A stretch of DNA of 64,000 nucleotides, from NCBI GenBank assembly GCA_951406725.2, contig OX597814.1, positions 34,968,001 through 35,032,000 of the forward strand, read 5' to 3'. Each line of letters opens with the position of its first letter. Position 1 is the first letter of the stretch. The stretch is from Octopus vulgaris (taxonomy: Eukaryota). The notes beneath the pieces were generated by a model. That model did no database searches. It was not told the origin of the DNA and saw only the letters and a program-made list of their open reading frames with translations. The translations under genes and the position numbers were made by a program. Positions 5,345-64,000 of this stretch are shown piece by piece.

Positions 5345-6653
5345 TGTATTTATTTACAAACAGTTAAATACATGTCCGGTCATAGAGTAACCAATGGTCT
5401 TGCATCGATAAAGCGATAGGCCTTATAGACGGCTCATCACACTCAATGGCAGATGCAAAACCCTCTTCAAATTGGACGTAGAAAACTGTTATGGTCAATT
5501 AATATGTAAACAAAGGCTTGATGCTTTGGCCGAGTAATCTTCCTTAGACCAGTTTAGATGGCAAACTTTATGGACTTAAGTGACGAAAGGGGTAAAAGAG
5601 GAATCTTTACTCCTAGGCTGTTTCTAGTCTGTGGATACTATTTCGGCTTTAATCAGCGAGTGGAGAATTGGTGAATGAGGACTCCCATGCCTGTAGCAGG
5701 TAGTACTTTAAATGGAGGCTTGGGCTATAAAAGTCACTTACGGCCTGTAATTTAGTATTCTTTCTTGCTCTGCTATGCAGAGCTTGCATCACCGTTCCTG
5801 TTAATGTAGGGCTCCGGCTGCTCTATAATCCTCCATTTAGCTTTGTGTGGGATTCCATTATCCTTAAGCTGCCATACATGGCTTGTCATGGAATTGACGT
5901 ACTGTCTTTCCGTAATCTTGAAAGAGCACATGTGGTTGTACAGGCGCCGCTTAAAGGCAGTTACGGCCAACCCAATATATCTCCGAACCTGATAGCTGGC
6001 TGTGTTCACACTCCTGGTGAAACTTCCGTTGACCCTGGGCTTGGGGTTGATGTTGCTGCCGCTGCTGTTACTGGAAAAGTCAACGGTGCTGTTATTACGG
6101 GGCGTAGGTTTGGCGATATCGCTGTAGTTGTTTTCGCTGTAGCTATCCCTGACCGTTGGTGTTGCTGTTGCTGTTGCTGCCACTGTTACAGATGTTGTGG
6201 ATGCTGTCGCTATTAACATTGGGCGTGGGAAAGGTATCTTCGCTAGTGCTGTTGCTAACATTTATAGCCCATGCCTCCATTTCAAGCGCTACAGGTACGG
6301 GATTCCTCACTAGCCGATTCTCCACTCACCTATTAGAGCCGAAATGTCATCGCAGACTGGAAACAGCCTGGGAGACAGAGAGTCTACTTTCACCCCTTTC
6401 GGCACTTAAGTCCATAAAATTTTACATCTAAACTGGTTTAAGGGAGATAACTCGCAAAAGACTCAAACAGTGTTAGCCTTTGCTTACATATTTACTGACC
6501 GTAACAATTTTCTACGTCCTGTTTGAAGAGGGGTATGCATCCGCCATTGGGTCTGACAAGTCATTTATAAGGCCTAACGCTTTATGGATGCGAAACCATT
6601 GATCACCCTATGACTGGACATATATACTGCTTGTATATAAATAAATAAAATAA

Positions 6654-16636: not shown

Positions 16637-17883
16637 GACATGACAAGTAAATAGAAACCCTCCATAAAGCATCGTTTTATATTTATTCTAACTTGTAAAA
16701 GTTTATATTTTTTATTAATACACATTTTTATGTTTCAGATTCTATAGGTGACTGTTTAATTATACCATGTACAAAAGAAACCTTGGAACTGTCTGAATTT
16801 CAAAGAGGCCTTACTGTGTGTCATTCTGAAGGTGGACATAGTCAGCGTAAAGTCGCAGAAACCCTTCGGATCCCACTTTCTACAGTTAATAGAGTGATTG
16901 TGCAATTCCCCAGAGAGGGGAAAGAGTCCATACCACTTCACCCAGATCAACCAGGGCACTTTGACAGGGCCATTCTCTTTGTTAAGAAAAATGTGGAGGA
17001 TAATCCTCGTTGCAAGGCCTTCAACATAACAGAACACGTTGATGTTAGTCTCAGAACAGCTGTCAGGTATCTCTCCAAACTTGGTTTCTATGGCAGAGCA
17101 GTAAGAAGGAAGTCACTTCTTCGACCAGCCAACATCAAGCGGAGAAAAGATTGGGCCAGTGAGATGGTGGAGAGACCACTAGCCTTTTAGGGCTCTGTCA
17201 TATTCTCTGATGAGTCCAGATTTGCTGCATTTCTTGACAGTGGTCGAGTGTGGGTCTGGAGACTCTGTGATCAAGAATTTGATGTGAAAAGATTGCAGCC
17301 AACAATGAAACATAGCAGCTATTCTGTGATGGTCTGGGGAGCGATTTGAAGCAATGATTGATCAAAGCTGGTGGAGTGTGAGGGAAACATAAACTCAGAT
17401 ATATATGTGTTCATATTGCAGAAAGGACTCCTTCCAATCTTCTACAGTGGTGAAATGATAAAAGAAGACTCTTTATTTATGGAAAATTGGGCTCCTTGTC
17501 ACACGGCTAAAATGACCTAAGTTTTGTTGGATGAAAATGGCATTAAAAAGCTTCCATGACCAGTCACCAGATGTGAACCCTACTGAACACCTGTGGGACA
17601 TAATGGACTGGGCATTTCATAAAAAGAACAAGAAAGCATCTTCAAAGCCAGATCTTGTGAGATTACTGCGTGAAACTTGGCAAGATATTCTGAAAGAGAG
17701 TATTTTTCATCTGATCAGTAATATGCCTAATAGGGTCCTTGCATCGAAAAATATAAAGGGCATGTCTACTAAATATTACATATCCACATTATAATAATTA
17801 ATAAATAATTCGGATGTACAATTTCATATTTAAATAAATTCTAATGATTATAAGGGTGTCTATTTACTTCTGTCATGTGTGTG
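16633..17883 (+). mobile_element. Tc1-like transposon with inactivated transposase
   Basis: TIRs cacagacatgacaagtaaatagaaaccct / agggtgtctatttacttctgtcatgtgtgtg; [30 protein letters not shown]; several stops and frameshifts. Confidence 0.92.
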
Positions 17884-29140: not shown

Positions 29141-29738
29141 ACTCTAAATAAAAGATAATCAAACCGGTCAATACGTATATTCAGTATGTACATCCTAGAG
29201 TATATTCCGCTTAGAAAAACTGCTACTCCTTATCCATTATGGAATAATAAATAGCACGTCTGTGTTAAGAATAGTCTCGCGGTAATAAAGCAATTTTAAA
29301 TTCTTCATAATGTGATATAAAACGATTATTCTTCTATAACTTACCCTCATCTCTAAAAAGGCTAAAATTTCACCCACAACATAGTACCAATTAGTGAATC
29401 TGATATTTTTATCTCTCACCTAAGTGAATGTATTCTCTATTTTCACAACTCATTCTTGGTTTTAAAAAATTGATATCACCATGCGTTTCCACGACGGGGC
29501 CTAATTATATGAAATTATTGGAATTTATACTTTTTTTGACTCTTCACGATGGGAGGTTTACACAAGTACAATTTCCGTAATATCTCACATAATTTGATCA
29601 AATTGATCTATATAGATTTAAAGGTTTTGTAGTGTCAGTTAAAAAAAAGTAGGTTTAAGTAGGGCAATACTACTAACGTTAGTCTTTTGGATATTAATTG
29701 AAATTTAGAAACTAATAAATATTACGCTATCGAGAAAA

Positions 29739-30325
29739 ATTTGCACTGCCTCCGGAAAATCCTCCGCATCAAATGGCAGAACCATATCCCCCAACAAAGA
29801 TGTCCTCAGGCAAGCAGGAATACCAAGCATGTTTGCACTCCTCACACAAAGACGTATGAGATGGCTTGGGCATGTTAGCCGCATGAAAGATGGCAGAATC
29901 CCCAAGGACATACTCTACGGAGAGCTTGCTAGGGGTACCAGGTCTGTGGGTAGACCGCTCTTACGTTACAAGGATGTTTGCAAAAGGGACATGAAGGCCT
30001 GCAACATCAATATTAGCGGTTGGGAGGCGGCTGCTGGCAACCGTGGAGACTGGCGACGTACCGTAAGAGAGGGAATACAAAGGAGTGACAGAGAAAGAGA
30101 GGAGAAATGGAAAGACAAGAAAAGACGTCAACAAGAAACTATGGCATTACAACCAGCCAGGAACAGTCTTCGCTACATTTGTGGTACCTGCCAGAGGGAA
30201 TGTTTGTCCAGGATAGGACTACACAGCCACAGCAGGAAATGTATCAGGACATGAAATGTAAAAGCCGGACTAGACTACTTTATGCGCAACTCCATTGTCT
30301 CCCGAGACAAAAAGGATGCCAACAA
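29739..30325 (+). mobile_element. 5'-truncated RTE LINE 3' end
   Basis: CLRKILRIKW..RRMRWLGHVSRM.DGRIPKDILYGEL..GRP; C2H2 CGTCQRECLSRIGLHSH; caacaa tail; candidate TSD cgagaaaa. Confidence 0.92.
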
Positions 30326-36099: not shown

Positions 36100-37130
36100 A
36101 TACAAATGGCGACGCTTCCACCAAATTCTTGTAGACCTAAATTCAAAACATCAGCTCTGATTTCTTCAAATTCCTTAATGATTTCATACACTATGATTTG
36201 AGTTGCTTTTTGCATTTTAAGAATTTATGTGCTTCCAGGATGTTATTCATTTTCGAGTCTCTAGTTAGTAAAGGAAGATTTTGCACAATAGTGTTGTATG
36301 CCTCGTTGTTTCTAGGGTTGTGAGTTGATATATACAGTAGTGCTTTGACATGAGGAGTGGTGTTATGTTTTGTTGCCCTTGGCACGCTTAATTCCATCGT
36401 CTATAAGTGAGGGTGGATATTGTCTTTCAGCTAATGTTGTTCTGAGGTTTAGAAAACAAAAGTTCCGAGTAGTTCTGTCAGACACTACTGTGCAAACCCT
36501 TTTACCAAATTAAAAGGAATATTTATTTTGATGTCTTTCGGGTGCCATGAGCTAAAAAGGAAATATTGCTCTGAGTCCGTTGGTTTATCATAGTTGTCAG
36601 TTATAATTCGGTTGTTGACCTTTTTAATCATAATATACCAAAATGGGACCTGTTGTTTGCTATATTCCATTGTGAATTGAATGTTACTGTTTATATCATT
36701 TAGTGTTGATTTGAATACCAAACGTTTACCAATGATCTCCTTCCAAATGTTAAAACAGTCATCCTGGTATCTTTTCCAGTTTTCTCTTATATAACGGTGG
36801 AATGGATAACCGTATTTTTGCAATGACACTTCATATATGATGAATTCAAATAACCCATTATCACGTTCGCAAGACCAGGGGTTGCTTTCGTTCCCATCGC
36901 AATTCGACATTTTTGACGATAATAGGTGTCATCAAAGAAGAAGTAATTGATCTGAAGTACAAATTTTAAACATTCAATAATAAAGAACTGATTTATGCGT
37001 TCCGGAAGTAATTCGGGATACTTTTCCGACCAGAATTTGATTGCTTTTATTCCATAGTCATGTGGGATGTTGGTGTAAAAATTGATAACATCGAACAACG
37101 CTAACTGAAAGACATTATCCACCCTCACTT
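36100..37130 (-). pseudogene. Decayed PLE RT fragment
   Basis: FDVINFYTNIPH, RQKCRIAMGT, WKRYQDDCF, KPTDSEQY..SSWHP; frameshifted. Confidence 0.9.
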
Positions 37131-40955: not shown

Positions 40956-41433
40956 GCTGTCTGTCTATCTATCTAGCTATCTATCTATCTACATATGCAT
41001 ACATACATACATACGTATATGCACATACCCACAACCATATATACTTATATAGATGTGCATGTATGAATATATACACACTTACATACATGTACATACATAT
41101 ACGTGTGTGTGAATGTGTGCGCGTGTGAACGTGTGTGTGCCCCGTTTAAGTGCTAATGCATTCAATAAAAGTGTTAAAAATGAAAATTAAAAAAATTCTG
41201 TGAATAGACCCTAATTTCCCAATTTGTATTTTTCGTTTTTAAACACAACGAAAAATTTATTTCATTAAAAAATAACACGTATACTTGCATAGAAAACACT
41301 ACCAATTTATTGAAAAAAATATTTATAAATACACACAACACAATACAGACACATACATGCACAAATATACATGTACGTAGGCATTCACATGCACATATAT
41401 ACGCATGTAAATGCATATATGCATATATATACC

Positions 41434-41627
41434 TACATATTCATACATGTGTATGTAAACAGATGCATGTAAATGCATATATACATATGCATACCTACCT
41501 ACATACAAACATATACGTATATATATATATATATATATATATACGTATACGTTTGTATGTAGGTAGGTATGCATATGTATATATGCATTTACATGCATCT
41601 GTTTACATACACATGTATGAACATGTA
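41434..41627. repeat. Near-perfect palindrome centred on (TA)n, abutting the PLE 5' end
   Basis: ~85-bp arms (tacatattcatacatgtgtatgtaaacagatgc... / ...gcatctgtttacatacacatgtatgaacatgta) with 2 visible mismatches. Confidence 0.95.
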
Positions 41628-42258
41628 CACCAACTAATACATACTAATACGTACTAATACATACTAGTACATACTAATACTTACACCAACCCTATACATA
41701 CACACGTCCAGACCCCGCATACGCACTTATACTCTCTCTCACACACACACACACACCTATACATACCAATACGTACTAATACATACTAATACATACTAAT
41801 ACATACACCAACCCCATACATACGCACGTCCAGACCAATCTTACGCACTAATACTCTCTCATACACACACACACACACACACACCCTTATACATACTAAT
41901 ACATACACCAACCCTATACATACACACATCCAGACCCCTCCCACGCACTTTTAGCTGGTCCCTCAACCCATTTATCAACCCTATTATCTCCCCTTATTTC
42001 GCTCTCGCGTCTCATGTTTGATCTTTGACCTCTGGCCGAAATCAGATCGCCATGTTGATTCGTTAGCTACTGCACGCATTTTTTTTCTCTCCTTCTTTCT
42101 GTGTTTTTCTCTCTCTGTGTATCTTTCTGTTGAAGAGCGTAGGCTCGAAACGTTAAAGACTTGTTTTATTTATATTTCCTGAGCGCCATACAATTGTTCG
42201 TTTGTTTTCCACCTGCCTTCGTCTTTTGTTTATTTTCATAAAGCTTCCCGTTATATAT
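41627..42258 (+). repeat. 5' pseudo-LTR of the PLE
   Basis: Direct repeat of 46204-46837; differences seen are microsatellite length and a 7-bp indel (gccatacaattg vs gccatactaatacaattg). Confidence 0.95.
42122..42159 (+). ncRNA. Minimal hammerhead-ribozyme-like motif (variant core) in 5' pLTR
   Basis: tcttt CTGTTGA a gagc-gtag-gctc GAA acgtt aaaga: helix I tcttt/aaaga, helix II gagc/gctc, palindromic helix III; A6 replaced by U. Confidence 0.65.
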
Positions 42259-42921
42259 TATGCGCTCACGTGGTCTCACTTTCATCCTATATTCTACCAA
42301 TACCACTATCAACACTTACCTCTACCTTGGATTTTCTTTACCTCTTGGATACTTACCATTGGCTGCACCTCTCTTTCGCGGATCAAAGTGACTTTGCATT
42401 GATGTGAAATCCTTAAAAAATATACCACGACGTCTACACATTTCTCACCTTGAACTTTCAACCTTGAACTTGTTCGCATAAACTGTCCCGTTTGTTGTAT
42501 TTTTATTTCTTCTTATATTACCACATTTTTACATTCATTTCATGCTTCCCACATTTTCCTGAATTTTTGTTCTCCTTTCCGTCTTTCTTCCCTCTCTGGA
42601 TGTCCATACTCCGTTTCCTCTGCCTGCACCCCCTTTTTTTGCCTCCCCCTCTCTCTGCTTCCCTTCTTTCTTTCCCTTTTTCGTTTGCCCCGTCTTTTCT
42701 GCCCCTATCGCTTACTTATCTAGTTTTTTCATACGATTATTATTTTTTTATTATTTTTTTGTTTTTTTATTATTTTTTTTATTATTTTTTTGTTTTTTTG
42801 AACGTTTGTTTTTTCCCCGTTTTTCGCTATCCTTTTTTTCTATTTTTTTCATACGATAATTTTTGTTTTTTGTTTTTTTTTGTTTTTTCGAACGTTTTTT
42901 TTTTTTTTCCGCTATCCCATC

Positions 42922-45900
42922 ATGCCGGATCCTAGGTCCTACCTTCTCACCCTCCATCACCGTTTGAAGGATCATCTACGTTCGCTTCCTGTATATTGCC
43001 TTCAGCCGTCCGTTAATCTCTCTCTACTTCTTTTTAAAAAAACCCGCTTCTCTAGCCATGTCTCTTTCCTAAGCCGCTGCCTACATCACCGACTCATCCC
43101 TAAAGGTTTCCGCCTCCACTTCCACCCTGCTCTCCACTCGGATTCTTCCATCTTACCCATACTCCGCACCACATCTTACCGCCTTATGCGGGCCACCATT
43201 CGCTCCAATCTCTCCAAACTACATGCCATCAACCGCCTTCTTCCTCCTGCTTTCTCCACCATCTTCTCCTCTCTGCCGCCTCTCTATGCTCCAAACACGC
43301 TACGCTTCATTATCCATTTGAATCAACTCTTCCATCAATTTCTTTCTGATACCAAACTTCGTAAACTCCAATCACTCTTCCATTCCACCCTACCCGACGC
43401 CACTACCCCAACTCCTCCACCACCCTTCTCCCCTCCCGATAGGCTCCATCCACCCACACCTAACCCCACTGCCCCTCCCTACAACCCCTTCTCCCCTCCC
43501 GTTAGGCTCCATCCACCTACACCTAACCCTACTGCCCCGCCTAACCACCCCCCACACACCTCTCCAATCCCTCCCCCTCAGACCTCCCCGAGACCTACCA
43601 CCCCTCCTACTTCTATTCCATCCACCCCTTCTCCACTTCCGTCTGTTGTTACCATTCCCCCCGATCTTCCCCTCTCTGCGGCTGAACGCTCCGTCCTTGG
43701 TAGGGGTCTGCGTTTCATCCCCCTCACTCCATCCTGTAAGGAATTCCAGACGCGAGTTGATGTCCACAGCTTTGTGCGCCGTGTCCGGTTGGGTGCGCAT
43801 TACCACGACTCGCCACCCACACCCAACGAAGAGGACGACTGCTTCACTGGCCTGGGCCGCCGACCATCCCCGTGGACGCCTGCCCCTGGCCAGATCCTAG
43901 CAGTGGATCTTTTCGCGGGCGCTTGTCAGCGTGCATTGGAGCGGTTCAACTTCTCCAGGCGCCAACGCCGCCTCAACATCTCCCCGGCTGAGCTCTTGGC
44001 TCTTCGTTCCCTCCAACGGCGCGCTGACATTATCATCAAACCGGCTGACAAGGGTGGAGCTGTAGTGGTGTGGCGCGCGGACCTCTATAGGGCCGAGGCT
44101 TTCCGCCAACTCAATGACACCTCCTTCTATTCCCCTCTGCCCTCTAACCCCACACGTAGCTACCAACAGACGGTATCCTCTACTGTCCAAGACCTCATCT
44201 CGTCCTCCCGTCTCTCCCGCACCGCATCCAACCTAATTGTGCGAACCCCACGTACCCCCACCATTTACTTCCTCCCCAAAATCCACAAACCCAACAACCC
44301 TGGCCGCCCCATCGTCTCCGCCTGTAACTGCCCCACGGAGCTCATCTCTAAATACCTCGACCGTGTCCTTGCCCCCCTAGTGGCATCTCTTCCCTCCCAC
44401 ATCCACGATACCAACCATGCTCTCCGGCTTTTCAACTCTTTCTCCTTTCCTCCCGGCTCCTCCAAAATCCTTTTTACTATGGACATCCAAAGCCTCTATA
44501 CTGTTATCCCTCACCACGAAGGACTGCAGGCCCTTCGACACTTTCTTGACCTCCGCTCTAACCCTGTACCTGACACCTCCACACTCATTCGTCTGGCCGA
44601 ACTTGTCCTTACTCTGAACTGCTTCTCGTTCGCGGGCGAGTTCTACCATCAGGTCTCGGGAGTGGCCATGGGAACGCGAATGGGCCCCAACTATGCGAAC
44701 CTGTTCGTTGGCTATGTTGAGGCCCAAATATTCTCTAATTTCACTGGTCCCACTCCTGAACTATATGGTCGTTATATTGACGACATTATCGGTGCCACCT
44801 CACTCTCCCGCGAACATCTAGATTCCTTCCTCTCTTTCGTCCAATCTTTCCATCCAGCCCTCCACTTCACTTCCACTATCTCCAACACCTCTGTCTCCTT
44901 CCTCGATATTTCGGTTAGCATTCTTCACTCTACTCTTACCACCTCCATTCACTACAAACACACAGACTCACACTCATACCTCAACTTCTCTTCCTCCCAC
45001 CCAGAACACACCAAGCTTTCCATCCCCTATTCCCAATTCCTCCGTCTACGTAGGCTCTGTAGTGACGACCATGACTTTGAGACTCAGTCTCAACGTATGG
45101 CTCACCACTTCACCCTACGTGGATACCCCCTCACCACTATCCACACCGCCCTTGCCAGAGCACGGTCCGTGGACCGTGTATCTGCTCTCTCTCCCCGAAC
45201 CCGCCCTGTAGTCTCCCGCCTCCCTTTTCCCCTCACTTACCACCCCACGACCCTACGTCTCCAACGCACCATTCTTCGAGCTTTCCGTCATCTCCAGTCC
45301 GACCCGTCCACTTCACACCTCTTCCCTAACCGACCCCTCCCCTCTTTCAAACGAGCCCACAACCTTCGAGACCTTTTGGTCCATAGCTCCTTCCCTGACC
45401 CTACCTCCCAACCCGGCTCGTTCCCCTGCTCCCGCCCACGTTGCCGCACTTGCCCTTACCTCTCCAACACCACCCGCCTCACTAGCACGCACCATCGACC
45501 CTATCCCATCATCCACTCCTTCACCTGCACCTCCAGCAATATTATCTATTGCATCTCTTGCTCTCTCTGCAATTCCTTGTACATCGGACAAACGGGACGC
45601 CGCTTGGCTGACCGGTTCGCGGAACACCTTCGTGACATCCACCTTGCGAACGACACACCGGTCTCACGCCATTTCCGCTCCACCGGTCACTCCTTGCAAC
45701 ACCTATCTGTGTTCGGTTTGTCCTTACACAGAGGCCATCCGGATTCCCGTTTGCGTCGTGAACAGGAATTAATCTTCTCTCTTCGCTCTTATACGCCATT
45801 TGGTCTCAACTCTCCCCCCTCCTCATCTAACCCCCTCTCCCCCTCCTCACCTATCCTTTCTCCCCCGACCCCTACTTCTTCAGTCCTTCATCCTTTCACC

Positions 45901-46161
45901 CCTACTCCCCTTCCCTTCTTCCCTCTTTCTCCCTCCCTCTTCCCCTTCCCTCTGCTCCCTCACTCCCTCTCTCCCCTTCTCTCTCCCCCTCTCCCTCTTT
46001 CCTCCTTCATCCCCCTCATCCCCTTCCTTCTCCCCATCCTCTCCTCTCCCCCTTCTCCTCCCCCTCTTCTTCCCCTCCCCTTCTCTCCCCCTCTTCTCCC
46101 CCTCCCCTCTTCTCCCCCTCCCCACTCTTCTCCCCCCTCTTCTCCTCACTACACCACATGA
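42922..46161 (+). CDS. PLE polyprotein: reverse transcriptase, Cys-rich linker and GIY-YIG endonuclease (1079 aa from first ATG)
   Basis: Uninterrupted frame; IIKPADKG, LPKIHK..PGRPIVS, MDIQSLYT, GVAMGTRMGPNYANL, RYIDD, SFLDI; linker CSRPRCRTC; IIYCISC..YIGQT.R.LADRFAEH; EQELI..FGLN. Confidence 0.95.
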   Translation: MPDPRSYLLTLHHRLKDHLRSLPVYCLQPSVNLSLLLFKKTRFSSHVSFLSRCLHHRLIPKGFRLHFHPALHSDSSILPILRTTSYRLMRATIRSNLSKLHAINRLLPPAFSTIFSSLPPLYAPNTLRFIIHLNQLFHQFLSDTKLRKLQSLFHSTLPDATTPTPPPPFSPPDRLHPPTPNPTAPPYNPFSPPVRLHPPTPNPTAPPNHPPHTSPIPPPQTSPRPTTPPTSIPSTPSPLPSVVTIPPDLPLSAAERSVLGRGLRFIPLTPSCKEFQTRVDVHSFVRRVRLGAHYHDSPPTPNEEDDCFTGLGRRPSPWTPAPGQILAVDLFAGACQRALERFNFSRRQRRLNISPAELLALRSLQRRADIIIKPADKGGAVVVWRADLYRAEAFRQLNDTSFYSPLPSNPTRSYQQTVSSTVQDLISSSRLSRTASNLIVRTPRTPTIYFLPKIHKPNNPGRPIVSACNCPTELISKYLDRVLAPLVASLPSHIHDTNHALRLFNSFSFPPGSSKILFTMDIQSLYTVIPHHEGLQALRHFLDLRSNPVPDTSTLIRLAELVLTLNCFSFAGEFYHQVSGVAMGTRMGPNYANLFVGYVEAQIFSNFTGPTPELYGRYIDDIIGATSLSREHLDSFLSFVQSFHPALHFTSTISNTSVSFLDISVSILHSTLTTSIHYKHTDSHSYLNFSSSHPEHTKLSIPYSQFLRLRRLCSDDHDFETQSQRMAHHFTLRGYPLTTIHTALARARSVDRVSALSPRTRPVVSRLPFPLTYHPTTLRLQRTILRAFRHLQSDPSTSHLFPNRPLPSFKRAHNLRDLLVHSSFPDPTSQPGSFPCSRPRCRTCPYLSNTTRLTSTHHRPYPIIHSFTCTSSNIIYCISCSLCNSLYIGQTGRRLADRFAEHLRDIHLANDTPVSRHFRSTGHSLQHLSVFGLSLHRGHPDSRLRREQELIFSLRSYTPFGLNSPPSSSNPLSPSSPILSPPTPTSSVLHPFTPTPLPFFPLSPSLFPFPLLPHSLSPLLSPPLPLSSFIPLIPFLLPILSSPPSPPPLLPLPFSPPLLPLPSSPPPHSSPPSSPHYTT

Positions 46162-46203
46162 CTTTACACATCACATCACATATGATGTGCCATACTAATA
46201 CAC

Positions 46204-46829
46204 ACACCAACTAATACATACTAATACGTACTAATACATACTAGTACATACTAATACTTACACCAACCCTATACATACACACGTCCAGACCCCGCATACG
46301 CACTTATACTCTCTCACACACACACACACACCTATACATACCAATACGTACTAATACATACTAATACATACTAATACATACACCAACCCCATACATACGC
46401 ACGTCCAGACCAATCTTACGCACTAATACTCTCTCATACACACACACACACACACACACCCTTATACATACTAATACATACACCAACCCTATACATACAC
46501 ACATCCAGACCCCTCCCACGCACTTTTAGCTGGTCCCTCAACCCATTTATCAACCCTATTATCTCCCCTTATTTCGCTCTCGCGTCTCATGTTTGATCTT
46601 TGACCTCTGGCCGAAATCAGATCGCCATGTTGATTCGTTAGCTACTGCACGCATTTTTTTTCTCTCCTTCTTTCTGTGTTTTTCTCTCTGTGTATCTTTC
46701 TGTTGAAGAGCGTAGGCTCGAAACGTTAAAGACTTGTTTTATTTATATTTCCTGAGCGCCATACTAATACAATTGTTCGTTTGTTTTCCACCTGCCTTCG
46801 TCTTTTGTTTATTTTCATAAAGCTTCCCG

Positions 46830-46837
<8 letters not shown>
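46204..46837 (+). repeat. 3' pseudo-LTR of the PLE
   Basis: Direct repeat of 41627-42258; contains atactaatac decamer repeats and three copies of a ~100-125-bp unit. Confidence 0.95.
46695..46732 (+). ncRNA. Minimal hammerhead-ribozyme-like motif in 3' pLTR
   Basis: Identical to 42122-42159. Confidence 0.65.
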
Positions 46838-46875
<38 letters not shown>

Positions 46876-47330: not shown

Positions 47331-47413
47331 ATGCTTTGAATATCTGTCCCACTTCAGGACTTCATGAGACAATATATCGGAGTGAGAATATAGCATATGT
47401 TACCATAACATCA

Positions 47414-47716
47414 GTGGAGGCACATGGCCTAGGGATTAGAGCAGCGGACTCGTGGTCGAGGGATCGCGGGTTCGAATCTCAGACCGGGCGATGTGTGTGC
47501 TTATGAGCGAAACACCTATGCTCCACGCGGCTCCGGCAGAAGTTAATGGCAAACTTCTGCTGACTCTTTCGTCACAACATTCTCTCACTCTTTCCTCCTG
47601 CATCTTGCAGCTCACCTGCGATGGACCGGCATCCTGTCCAGGTGGGGAACCTATACGCCAAGGAAACCGGGAAACAGGCCCTAATGAGCCAGGCGTGCCT
47701 CGAGAAGGAACAAACA
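47414..47716 (+). mobile_element. tRNA-derived SINE with 12-bp TSD
   Basis: TSD accataacatca at 47402 and 47717; B box ggttcgaatc. Confidence 0.92.
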
Positions 47717-50715: not shown

Positions 50716-50926
50716 TGTATGTATGCATGTATGATTGTGTATGTGTGTGCACGTATATGTTGAATATATGTATGTGCGTATGTATGCATGTATATATATA
50801 TATATACATACAGACTTACATACACACACACACACACACATATATATATAAATGTATATATATATATATATATATATATACATTATTTAAAATTGATGGA
50901 TATTTGTACTCATCTTGTTTATTATT

Positions 50927-50972
50927 AACACAACGTTTCGGCTGATATACCCTTCAGCCTTCATCAGGTGTC
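50927..50972 (-). ncRNA. Type I minimal hammerhead ribozyme, canonical core
   Basis: Minus strand: GACAC CUGAUGA A GGCUGA-agggUAUA-UCAGCC GAA ACGUU GUGUU; helix I GACAC/GUGUU, 6-bp helix II. Confidence 0.8.
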
Positions 50973-52096: not shown

Positions 52097-53749
<1,653 letters not shown>

Positions 53750-63291: not shown

Positions 63292-64000
63292 AACAGGCTG
63301 CCGACTGGTTGACTAGTTTGCAGAGCAACTCAGAGACATCCAACTTGGCAACGGGTTGCCACCCTCTCAACATCTTCGCTCCACTGATCATCCTATCCAT
63401 ACCTCCTAAATTCTTTAAACTTTTTCTCCCATCACATTCAATCAATATACACTATGCCCTTTGCCTCTATCTCGCATTTTTCACGCCTCTCCAATGCATC
63501 CCATTCACACTAACATTTTCCTCGCATGACCCTCATATCAACCCGCATTTCCTCAACACACTAACACGGTTTTCAAATAAACACACCTCATAACTCACCC
63601 CTCTGCCACACCTGCACAACTTCTAATCTTTTCTACCATCTCGTCTCCTTGGCAGACCCGCATACACAAGCAGATTCACACACACGTACACATATCGACA
63701 TATTCACATATGCACACCCTCAAATATCCATTCTCCTCACGTATACATACACGCGCGGGCCCACACATCACAATTCACTCACCATTTTGTTTCCCAATTA
63801 TTTTTGTTTTCGTTTTTTCCACCCGTACAAACACTCACATGTTTTCTCACTCATTTATAGTATTGTTTCTTAACCCGCCATTCCCACTTTGTATGAAAAC
63901 TCGCCTACACACTTTCCTTACCACCAACTCTTTAGCTCCCCATCATATATAGGCACACCCACAAGCACATACATACTCACACGCACGCACCTACACTTTC
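63292..64000 (+). pseudogene. Older 5'-truncated relative of the main PLE (GIY-YIG end plus C-rich tail)
   Basis: TGCRLVD*FAEQLRDIQLGNGLPPSQHLRSTDH aligns with TGRRLADRFAEHLRDIHLANDTPVSRHFRSTGH. Confidence 0.8.

Follow-up and report, generated by a model that had tools for sequence, protein, structure and literature searches.

How a nearly undecayed retrotransposon came to lie between two (TA)n runs, with an inverted piece of host DNA at its 5' end, is the question raised by a 64,000-nucleotide stretch of Octopus vulgaris DNA (assembly GCA_951406725.2, contig OX597814.1, positions 34,968,001 to 35,032,000, forward strand; hereafter the window, in whose own numbering all positions are given). 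The original prediction, made from the letters alone, had placed here an intact, probably very young Penelope-like element (PLE) of Neptune type that may target (TA)n. The locus is a full-length, nearly undecayed Neptune-group PLE flanked by two (TA)n runs. In our view it was probably inserted recently by target-primed reverse transcription into (TA)n, and the other cut end probably folded back, copying 84 bases of flank.

The junctions carry this reading. The highest-scoring hairpin in the window (87; the next, scoring 30, lies inside a TA array) is a palindrome centred on (TA)13, with arms of 97 bp, no spacer and 95 of 97 bases complementary; its right arm stops at the first base of the 5' pseudo-long terminal repeat (pLTR) of the element. 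Since the left arm is continuous with the upstream flank, the right arm is the copy. There is no direct (TA)n abutment at this end, the element being separated from (TA)13 by the 84 bp of inverted flank. At the other end, the 3' pLTR runs into (TA)20 and the last seven bases to 46837, TATATAT, are common to element and target. When the element and the right arm are taken out, flank-(TA)n-flank is obtained, which is the simplest empty site. TA runs of at least 5 units make up 1.2% of the window, and such an inverted extension is found at 1 of its 30 TA runs, the next best reaching 13 bp. A degenerate repeat (about 41403-41439 versus 41464-41505) straddles the outer end of the left arm. At the two mismatched positions the right arm shows a T-to-C change (or the left arm one of C-to-T type), and two events are too few to interpret.

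From this final structure we infer four steps. The protein encoded by the single open reading frame (ORF) would bind a more-than-unit-length RNA (pLTR-ORF-pLTR-UAUAUAU), and its GIY-YIG domain would cut inside (TA)n. The freed ...ATATA-3' end would then pair with the UAUAUAU of the RNA just past the pLTR and prime cDNA synthesis, which would run across the ORF and on into the partial copy upstream, so that the TATATAT match would mark where reverse transcription started. Finally, the self-complementary opposite ...TATA-3' end would snap back, be extended by 84 nt on its own strand and join the cDNA end with an overlap of about 1 nt. Published work provides precedents for parts of this scheme: the protein of a Poseidon PLE cuts AT-rich DNA on both strands and extends both (PMC11167929), palindromes at inverted Penelope junctions have been taken as traces of self-priming (PMC3846280), inverted genomic DNA was described at the reciprocal end of three L1 insertions (PMC11702581) and target DNA from close by is in some cases copied at R2 snap-back junctions (PMC11371274). 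The flank fold-back would be a mechanistic trace of modest weight, with parallels in L1 and R2. A PLE case of inverted host flank was not found in the literature searched, whose coverage was incomplete.

Several points weigh against this scheme. The evidence consists of one insertion, seen in its final structure only. Reverse transcription by the PLE studied in vitro starts at an RNA site that is non-homologous to the cut DNA (PMC11167929), unlike the third step above. Related loci, which belong to other families and lie on short contigs, show (TA)n in 0 of the 12 cases that reach the end of the endonuclease (EN) domain (26-1500 nt of flank), and a microsatellite within 260 nt after 0 of 9 hammerhead motifs. 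The TATATAT of the element could itself have seeded the 3' (TA)20. The arms mismatch at 2 of 97 positions as against none in the pLTRs (Fisher p about 0.018), which fits error-prone copying but equally an older palindrome. Lastly, a 116-aa tail on the encoded protein, described below, suggests that the copy, or its assembly, is not typical of the family.

The mismatch count bears directly on a different history, in which a host repair event folded back at (TA)13 and the Neptune element was inserted later at the edge of the palindrome. The excess of mismatches (2 in 97 bp versus 0 in 628) agrees with such an order of events, and palindromes and cruciforms are prone to breakage. However, it would then be a coincidence that the arm stops precisely where the pLTR begins, just one junction would be left in (TA)n, and an arm of this kind accompanies only one TA run in the window; we regard this history as quite unlikely. 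Still further from our expectation, and highly improbable, is that the palindrome is an assembly artefact, a fold-back chimera at a TA hairpin: TA hairpins do cause trouble in sequencing and assembly, but the inversion is short, contains two differences and passes without disruption into the start of the pLTR.

A further alternative concerns the target itself. The family may insert in AT-rich DNA generally, the 3' (TA)20 having grown from the element's own TATATAT by slippage of the reverse transcriptase (RT) or of replication. TATATAT indeed belongs to the element (42252-42258), coral-type relatives show no TA flanks and microsatellites abound in the genome (121 TRF rows). Against this stand the separate (TA)13 at the breakpoint on the left, a further hammerhead end of PLE type within the window, likewise near (TA)n at a distance of about 50 nt, and the cephalopod Naiad and Hydra families listed with a (TA)n preference in File S1 of PMC8557442, so that an absence of real targeting seems unlikely to us. 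A microsatellite bias mediated by the linker has already been hypothesised for Neptune and linker-bearing PLEs (PMC8557442). No paper on Neptune Penelope insertion into TA repeats was found in the literature searched, and the accessible parts of PMC12602865 and bioRxiv 10.64898/2026.07.22.740005 hold nothing further on target choice. The (TA)n preference announced by the original prediction stands for one site, where both (TA)20 and (TA)13 are present, and finds no echo in the flanks of relatives from other hosts; as a property of the family it is plausible.

Insertion by target-primed reverse transcription with a single fold-back also has a more far-reaching version. A currently mobile Neptune family would prime both cut ends through self-complementary (TA)n, first on the UAUAUAU of the RNA, and then with the second end either on the RNA, which would yield the classic inverted PLE copy, or on itself, which would yield the host-DNA mirror. 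Insertions would routinely build perfect host-DNA palindromes, base pairing would guide the choice of target as much as the zinc-finger linker does, and identity above 99% would extend across several species. We hold this version to be doubtful.

The affiliation of the element was deduced from its protein. Neptune and Nematis are recognised by a C-terminal EN in combination with a CX2-5CxxC linker (PMC8557442), and the octopus protein carries a CX4CxxC linker ahead of a C-terminal GIY-YIG domain with its CCHH residues (C880, C883, H902 and H917). Between this linker and the next Cys lies a spacer of 24 aa; it measures 20-26 aa in 109 pattern-fitting proteins (the octopus one included) and, as counted by eye in the supplementary alignments of PMC8557442, 23-27 aa in Neptune rows and 7 aa in Nematis rows. 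Nematis was ruled out by this spacer, Penelope/Poseidon because that clade lacks the Cys-rich linker, Naiad/Chlamys because their EN is N-terminal, and Hydra because it has DKT, a CxCX5C linker and no CCHH whereas the octopus protein has CCHH and DKG.

Named protein matches come from corals, sharks, gastropods and echinoderms, and none of the listed matches exceeds 64% identity: the closest relatives among those listed are 55-57% identical, with values of at most 64% among the 120 listed of 2077 shorter matches. Three stored proteins match three motifs of Neptune1_Ap, whose host we take to be Acropora palmata, at 24/24 residues, and these proteins are 52-53% identical to the octopus protein over the RT-EN region and 35% in the N-terminal domain. 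The Neptune1_Ap rows used are those printed in the supplementary alignment of PMC8557442. P0007, the cluster representative of these three proteins, and the octopus protein fell in one 22-row clade (SH-aLRT 98) of a quick tree built with no outgroup or labelled references from 65 of 121 proteins (those with both anchors: the first 45, the named ones and every fourth); Neptune itself is paraphyletic in PMC8557442. The exact protein is absent from a collection of 15 billion proteins, though short near-identical fragments could lie among the shorter matches beyond the 120 listed, and no solved structure was matched by sequence for aa 241-963. Because about half of the residues differ and no listed match is above 64%, the element is, judged by its sequence, a separate and distinct family within the known Neptune group.

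The element occupies 41627-46830 on the + strand, in the order pLTR, T-rich leader, ORF and pLTR (Table 1). It had been placed at 41627 to 46837: the start was right, while the end lies at 46830, the final seven bases being shared with the target. A single ORF with RT and C-terminal GIY-YIG, together with pLTRs in partial tandem arrangement, are features of EN+ PLEs. The ORF encodes, in order, a conserved N-terminal domain, a Pro-rich spacer, RT, thumb, linker, GIY-YIG and a low-complexity tail. Homology to full-length relatives covers the N-terminal 155 aa, which puts the ATG at the expected place; no splice donor or acceptor was found in the leader by a simple pattern search, and no intron is needed there since homology to relatives begins at the ATG. 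In an alignment with 120 homologs, the protein keeps ADKG (its version of the DKG motif), LPKIHK, GRPIVS, the three RT aspartates, the linker, CCHH and the R, E and N of the EN. The N-terminal GxKF motif reads GLRF, with R in place of the K that 49 of 100 homologs carry. The sense strand of the ORF is strongly biased towards pyrimidines (42% C, 27% T), the G+C content of the window being 37%. EN+ PLEs may in addition bear a tail of 30-40 bp or an inverted, 5'-truncated copy; an inverted copy of the element was not found within the window.

The two pLTRs (41627-42258 versus 46204-46837) align over 638 columns, of which 628 are identical, none is substituted and 10 are gaps, in three indels of 2, 2 and 6 nt. 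The 6-nt indel (42188 versus 46761-46766; ATAC versus ATACTAATAC) lies in a GCCATAC context that recurs around 46188, just before the 3' pLTR; it may have arisen by slippage or by a short template switch.

Table 1. Features of the element and of its insertion site (positions in the window)
Feature	Position	Strand	Remarks
Palindrome left arm: original host flank, closing with half of (TA)13	41434-41530		Continuous with upstream flank
(TA)13, palindrome centre	41518-41543		Putative left half of target and fold-back point
Palindrome right arm: inverted left flank	41531-41627		84 bp past the TA run; 1 base shared with pLTR
5' pLTR (upstream partial tandem copy)	41627-42258	+	Contains 10-bp and ~120-bp internal repeats
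Minimal type I hammerhead motif, 5' pLTR	42122-42159	+	Own descriptor
T-rich 5' leader, pLTR to ORF	42259-42921	+	49.5% T
Single ORF, 1079 aa	42922 (ATG) to 46161 (stop)	+	Internal stops: 0
RT core, ADKG to YIDD	44044-44784	+	Pfam RVT_1 E 1.4e-07
Zinc-finger-like linker CX4CxxC	45427-45453	+	aa 836-844
GIY-YIG EN, CCHH residues and R, E, N catalytic positions	45520-45810	+	Pfam GIY-YIG E 0.0065, under curated cut-off
Pyrimidine-rich read-through tail, 116 codons	45811-46161	+	Beyond last EN motif GLN (aa 961-963)
3' pLTR	46204-46830	+	Repeat to 5' pLTR traceable to 46837
Second hammerhead copy, 3' pLTR	46695-46732	+	Own descriptor; identical to first
(TA)20	46831-46870		Putative right half of target; first 7 bases match TATATAT of the 5' pLTR

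The absence of substitutions in 628 pLTR columns sets an upper bound near 0.5% on divergence. With the octopus rate of 0.0036 substitutions per site per Myr quoted in PMC13282606, this would correspond to an age under about 0.7 Myr (million years), pLTRs dating insertions less strictly than true long terminal repeats. Near-identical sequence also occurs elsewhere: 20 of the 24 listed sequencing runs (9 studies, 4 organism labels) contain 83-87% of 306 sampled ORF 31-mers, a share that implies at most 0.45-0.6% divergence, and the other four, included by label or study, contain next to no ORF words. Seventeen of the 20 word-holding runs hold under 200 million letters, and one of the 20 may be the source of the window itself; recovery of nearly the whole ORF from such small runs suggests a multi-copy or transcribed sequence, and none of the listed runs with ORF words is an RNA run. 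Horizontal transfer is not claimed, because the four coded organism labels may stand for close relatives or mixed samples. The near-identical sequence in these runs supports a young family. Together with the pLTRs, which are as nearly identical as announced, it bears out the very young age given in the original prediction, whose Neptune-type assignment and full set of RT and GIY-YIG motifs also agree with our results. A total of 336 recently active Penelope-like insertions in 31 families is reported for Octopus vulgaris (PMC13282606).

The claim of an intact 3.2-kb open frame needs qualification. The frame has no stops, but about 0.35 kb of it is a pyrimidine tail, which leaves an informative open frame of about 2.9 kb. 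With 93% C/T in this tract, a stop-free run over 116 codons is expected with a probability of about 0.81. Among homologs with a recognisable EN end, 100 of 101 terminate at most 18 aa after it, most often 6 or 3 aa, and the remaining one carries 115 aa of unrelated sequence. An out-of-frame TAA is present at 45828-45830, after a run of six C (45814-45819) and where homologs usually end; a one-base slip near the C run, in the copy or in the assembly, is likely.

Each pLTR contains a predicted minimal hammerhead of the EN+ PLE kind, made of stem I (UCUUU/AAAGA), a CUGUUGA core, an extra A, stem II (GAGC/GCUC) and GAAAC-GUU. It has an extra base after A9, the G10.1-C11.1 pair and a palindromic stem III, and departs from the published consensus (criteria of PMC4209133) only in the U at core position 6. 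Applied to 80 related loci, our descriptor picked out nine motifs in 8 of them, every one with A6, and no match in 20 shuffles of these loci; no paper on A6U in the hammerhead catalytic core was found in the literature searched. An Rfam search gave no hammerhead match. It returned 71 weak matches, mostly of miRNA models to the palindrome and TA-rich DNA, all under the gathering score. The fold of the monomer is no better than that of shuffles (z -0.77), as expected because the motif is thought to act as a dimer.

Tail and hammerhead together raise the possibility that the family is recent and this copy fixed or disabled, no longer mobile. Its tail of 116 aa compares with at most 18 aa in nearly all homologs, and its U6 with A at that position in 9 of 9 hammerheads of related loci. 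On the other hand, all catalytic residues are kept, hammerhead cleavage is dispensable for insertion in vitro (PMC11167929) and the slip beside the C run may be an assembly error. We take a young but dead copy to be a serious possibility, though not the one we would lean towards.

Elsewhere in the window, the other transposable elements had been described as decayed or truncated, and this is so among its 18 stop-to-stop frames of at least 150 aa, where the other transposon-like ones (named by motif) are fragments of 162-181 aa. At 50855-50972 (- strand) lies a minimal hammerhead of another family, with a CUGAUGA core and a 6-bp stem II; (TA)n is reached about 50 nt past the predicted site of cleavage, and the motif probably belongs to a solo end of a PLE next to (TA)n. 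The 162-aa frame at 5773-6261 (- strand) has no Pfam match and a GIY-YIG end resembling, by eye, the Hydra rows of the published alignment. A decayed PLE fragment with RT and thumb, 22-35% identical to the octopus protein and its homologs, occupies 36179-37119 (- strand). At 63293-63391 (+ strand), a decayed EN piece, 64% identical to the octopus protein over 33 aa and followed by C/T-rich DNA, belongs to an older, related Neptune copy that extends in the direction of the end of the window. Short frames at 16699-17190, 29709-30254 and 53006-53521 are presumably a Tc1 transposase and the ends of RTE-type and R2/Dong-type long interspersed elements, and the right flank around 47410-47700 holds what we assume to be tRNA-like sequence resembling a short interspersed element. 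Outside the window, the related locus L069 carries at about 6060-6156 a 96-nt stretch of the reverse telomeric repeat (CCTAAC)n, some 600 nt after the ORF match of a distant EN-bearing relative (28% identity).

One more intact PLE would be ordinary by itself; what deserves attention is the fold-back at the 5' junction, along with the TATATAT that RNA and target have in common. PMC8557442 names the origin of inverted PLE structures and of microsatellite preference as an open question. With a young Neptune protein that retains all its motifs, a defined (TA)n site, UAUAUAU in the RNA and a fold-back, the locus offers a usable test case for specificity by the linker versus base pairing.

Among known systems, Neptune1_Ap shares with the octopus element the domain order, PADKG, the CX4CxxC linker with its spacer of 23-24 aa and the CCHH GIY-YIG. 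The octopus element differs from this kin in its longer Pro-rich spacer, its 116-aa tail, its longer pLTR with internal tandem repeats, its U6 hammerhead and its (TA)n flanks, which were not seen at related loci; minimal hammerheads occur downstream of the ORFs at those loci as well. The cephalopod Naiad and Hydra PLEs resemble it in their (TA)n preference and in a Cys-rich motif ahead of GIY-YIG; as described in File S1 of PMC8557442, Naiad differs by an N-terminal EN and no canonical hammerhead, and Hydra by DKT and the lack of CCHH. With Poseidon PAc of Anolis the element has in common the pLTR-ORF-pLTR structure, the hammerhead and, by the steps proposed above, the internal start of reverse transcription and the AT-rich cutting of both strands (PMC11167929), whereas PAc belongs to the Penelope/Poseidon clade, has no linker and starts reverse transcription at a site unlike its target, as opposed to the putative TATATAT match seen here. 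R2 (PMC11371274), L1 (PMC11702581) and the Penelope elements of Adineta (PMC3846280) offer the closest parallel to the proposed fold-back, self-primed synthesis at the 5' junction yielding an inverted segment in each. The 5' palindromes of Adineta, 18 and 38 bp long, are situated within the element itself (PMC3846280), whereas at the octopus locus the mirror is made of host flank and is centred on the target microsatellite.

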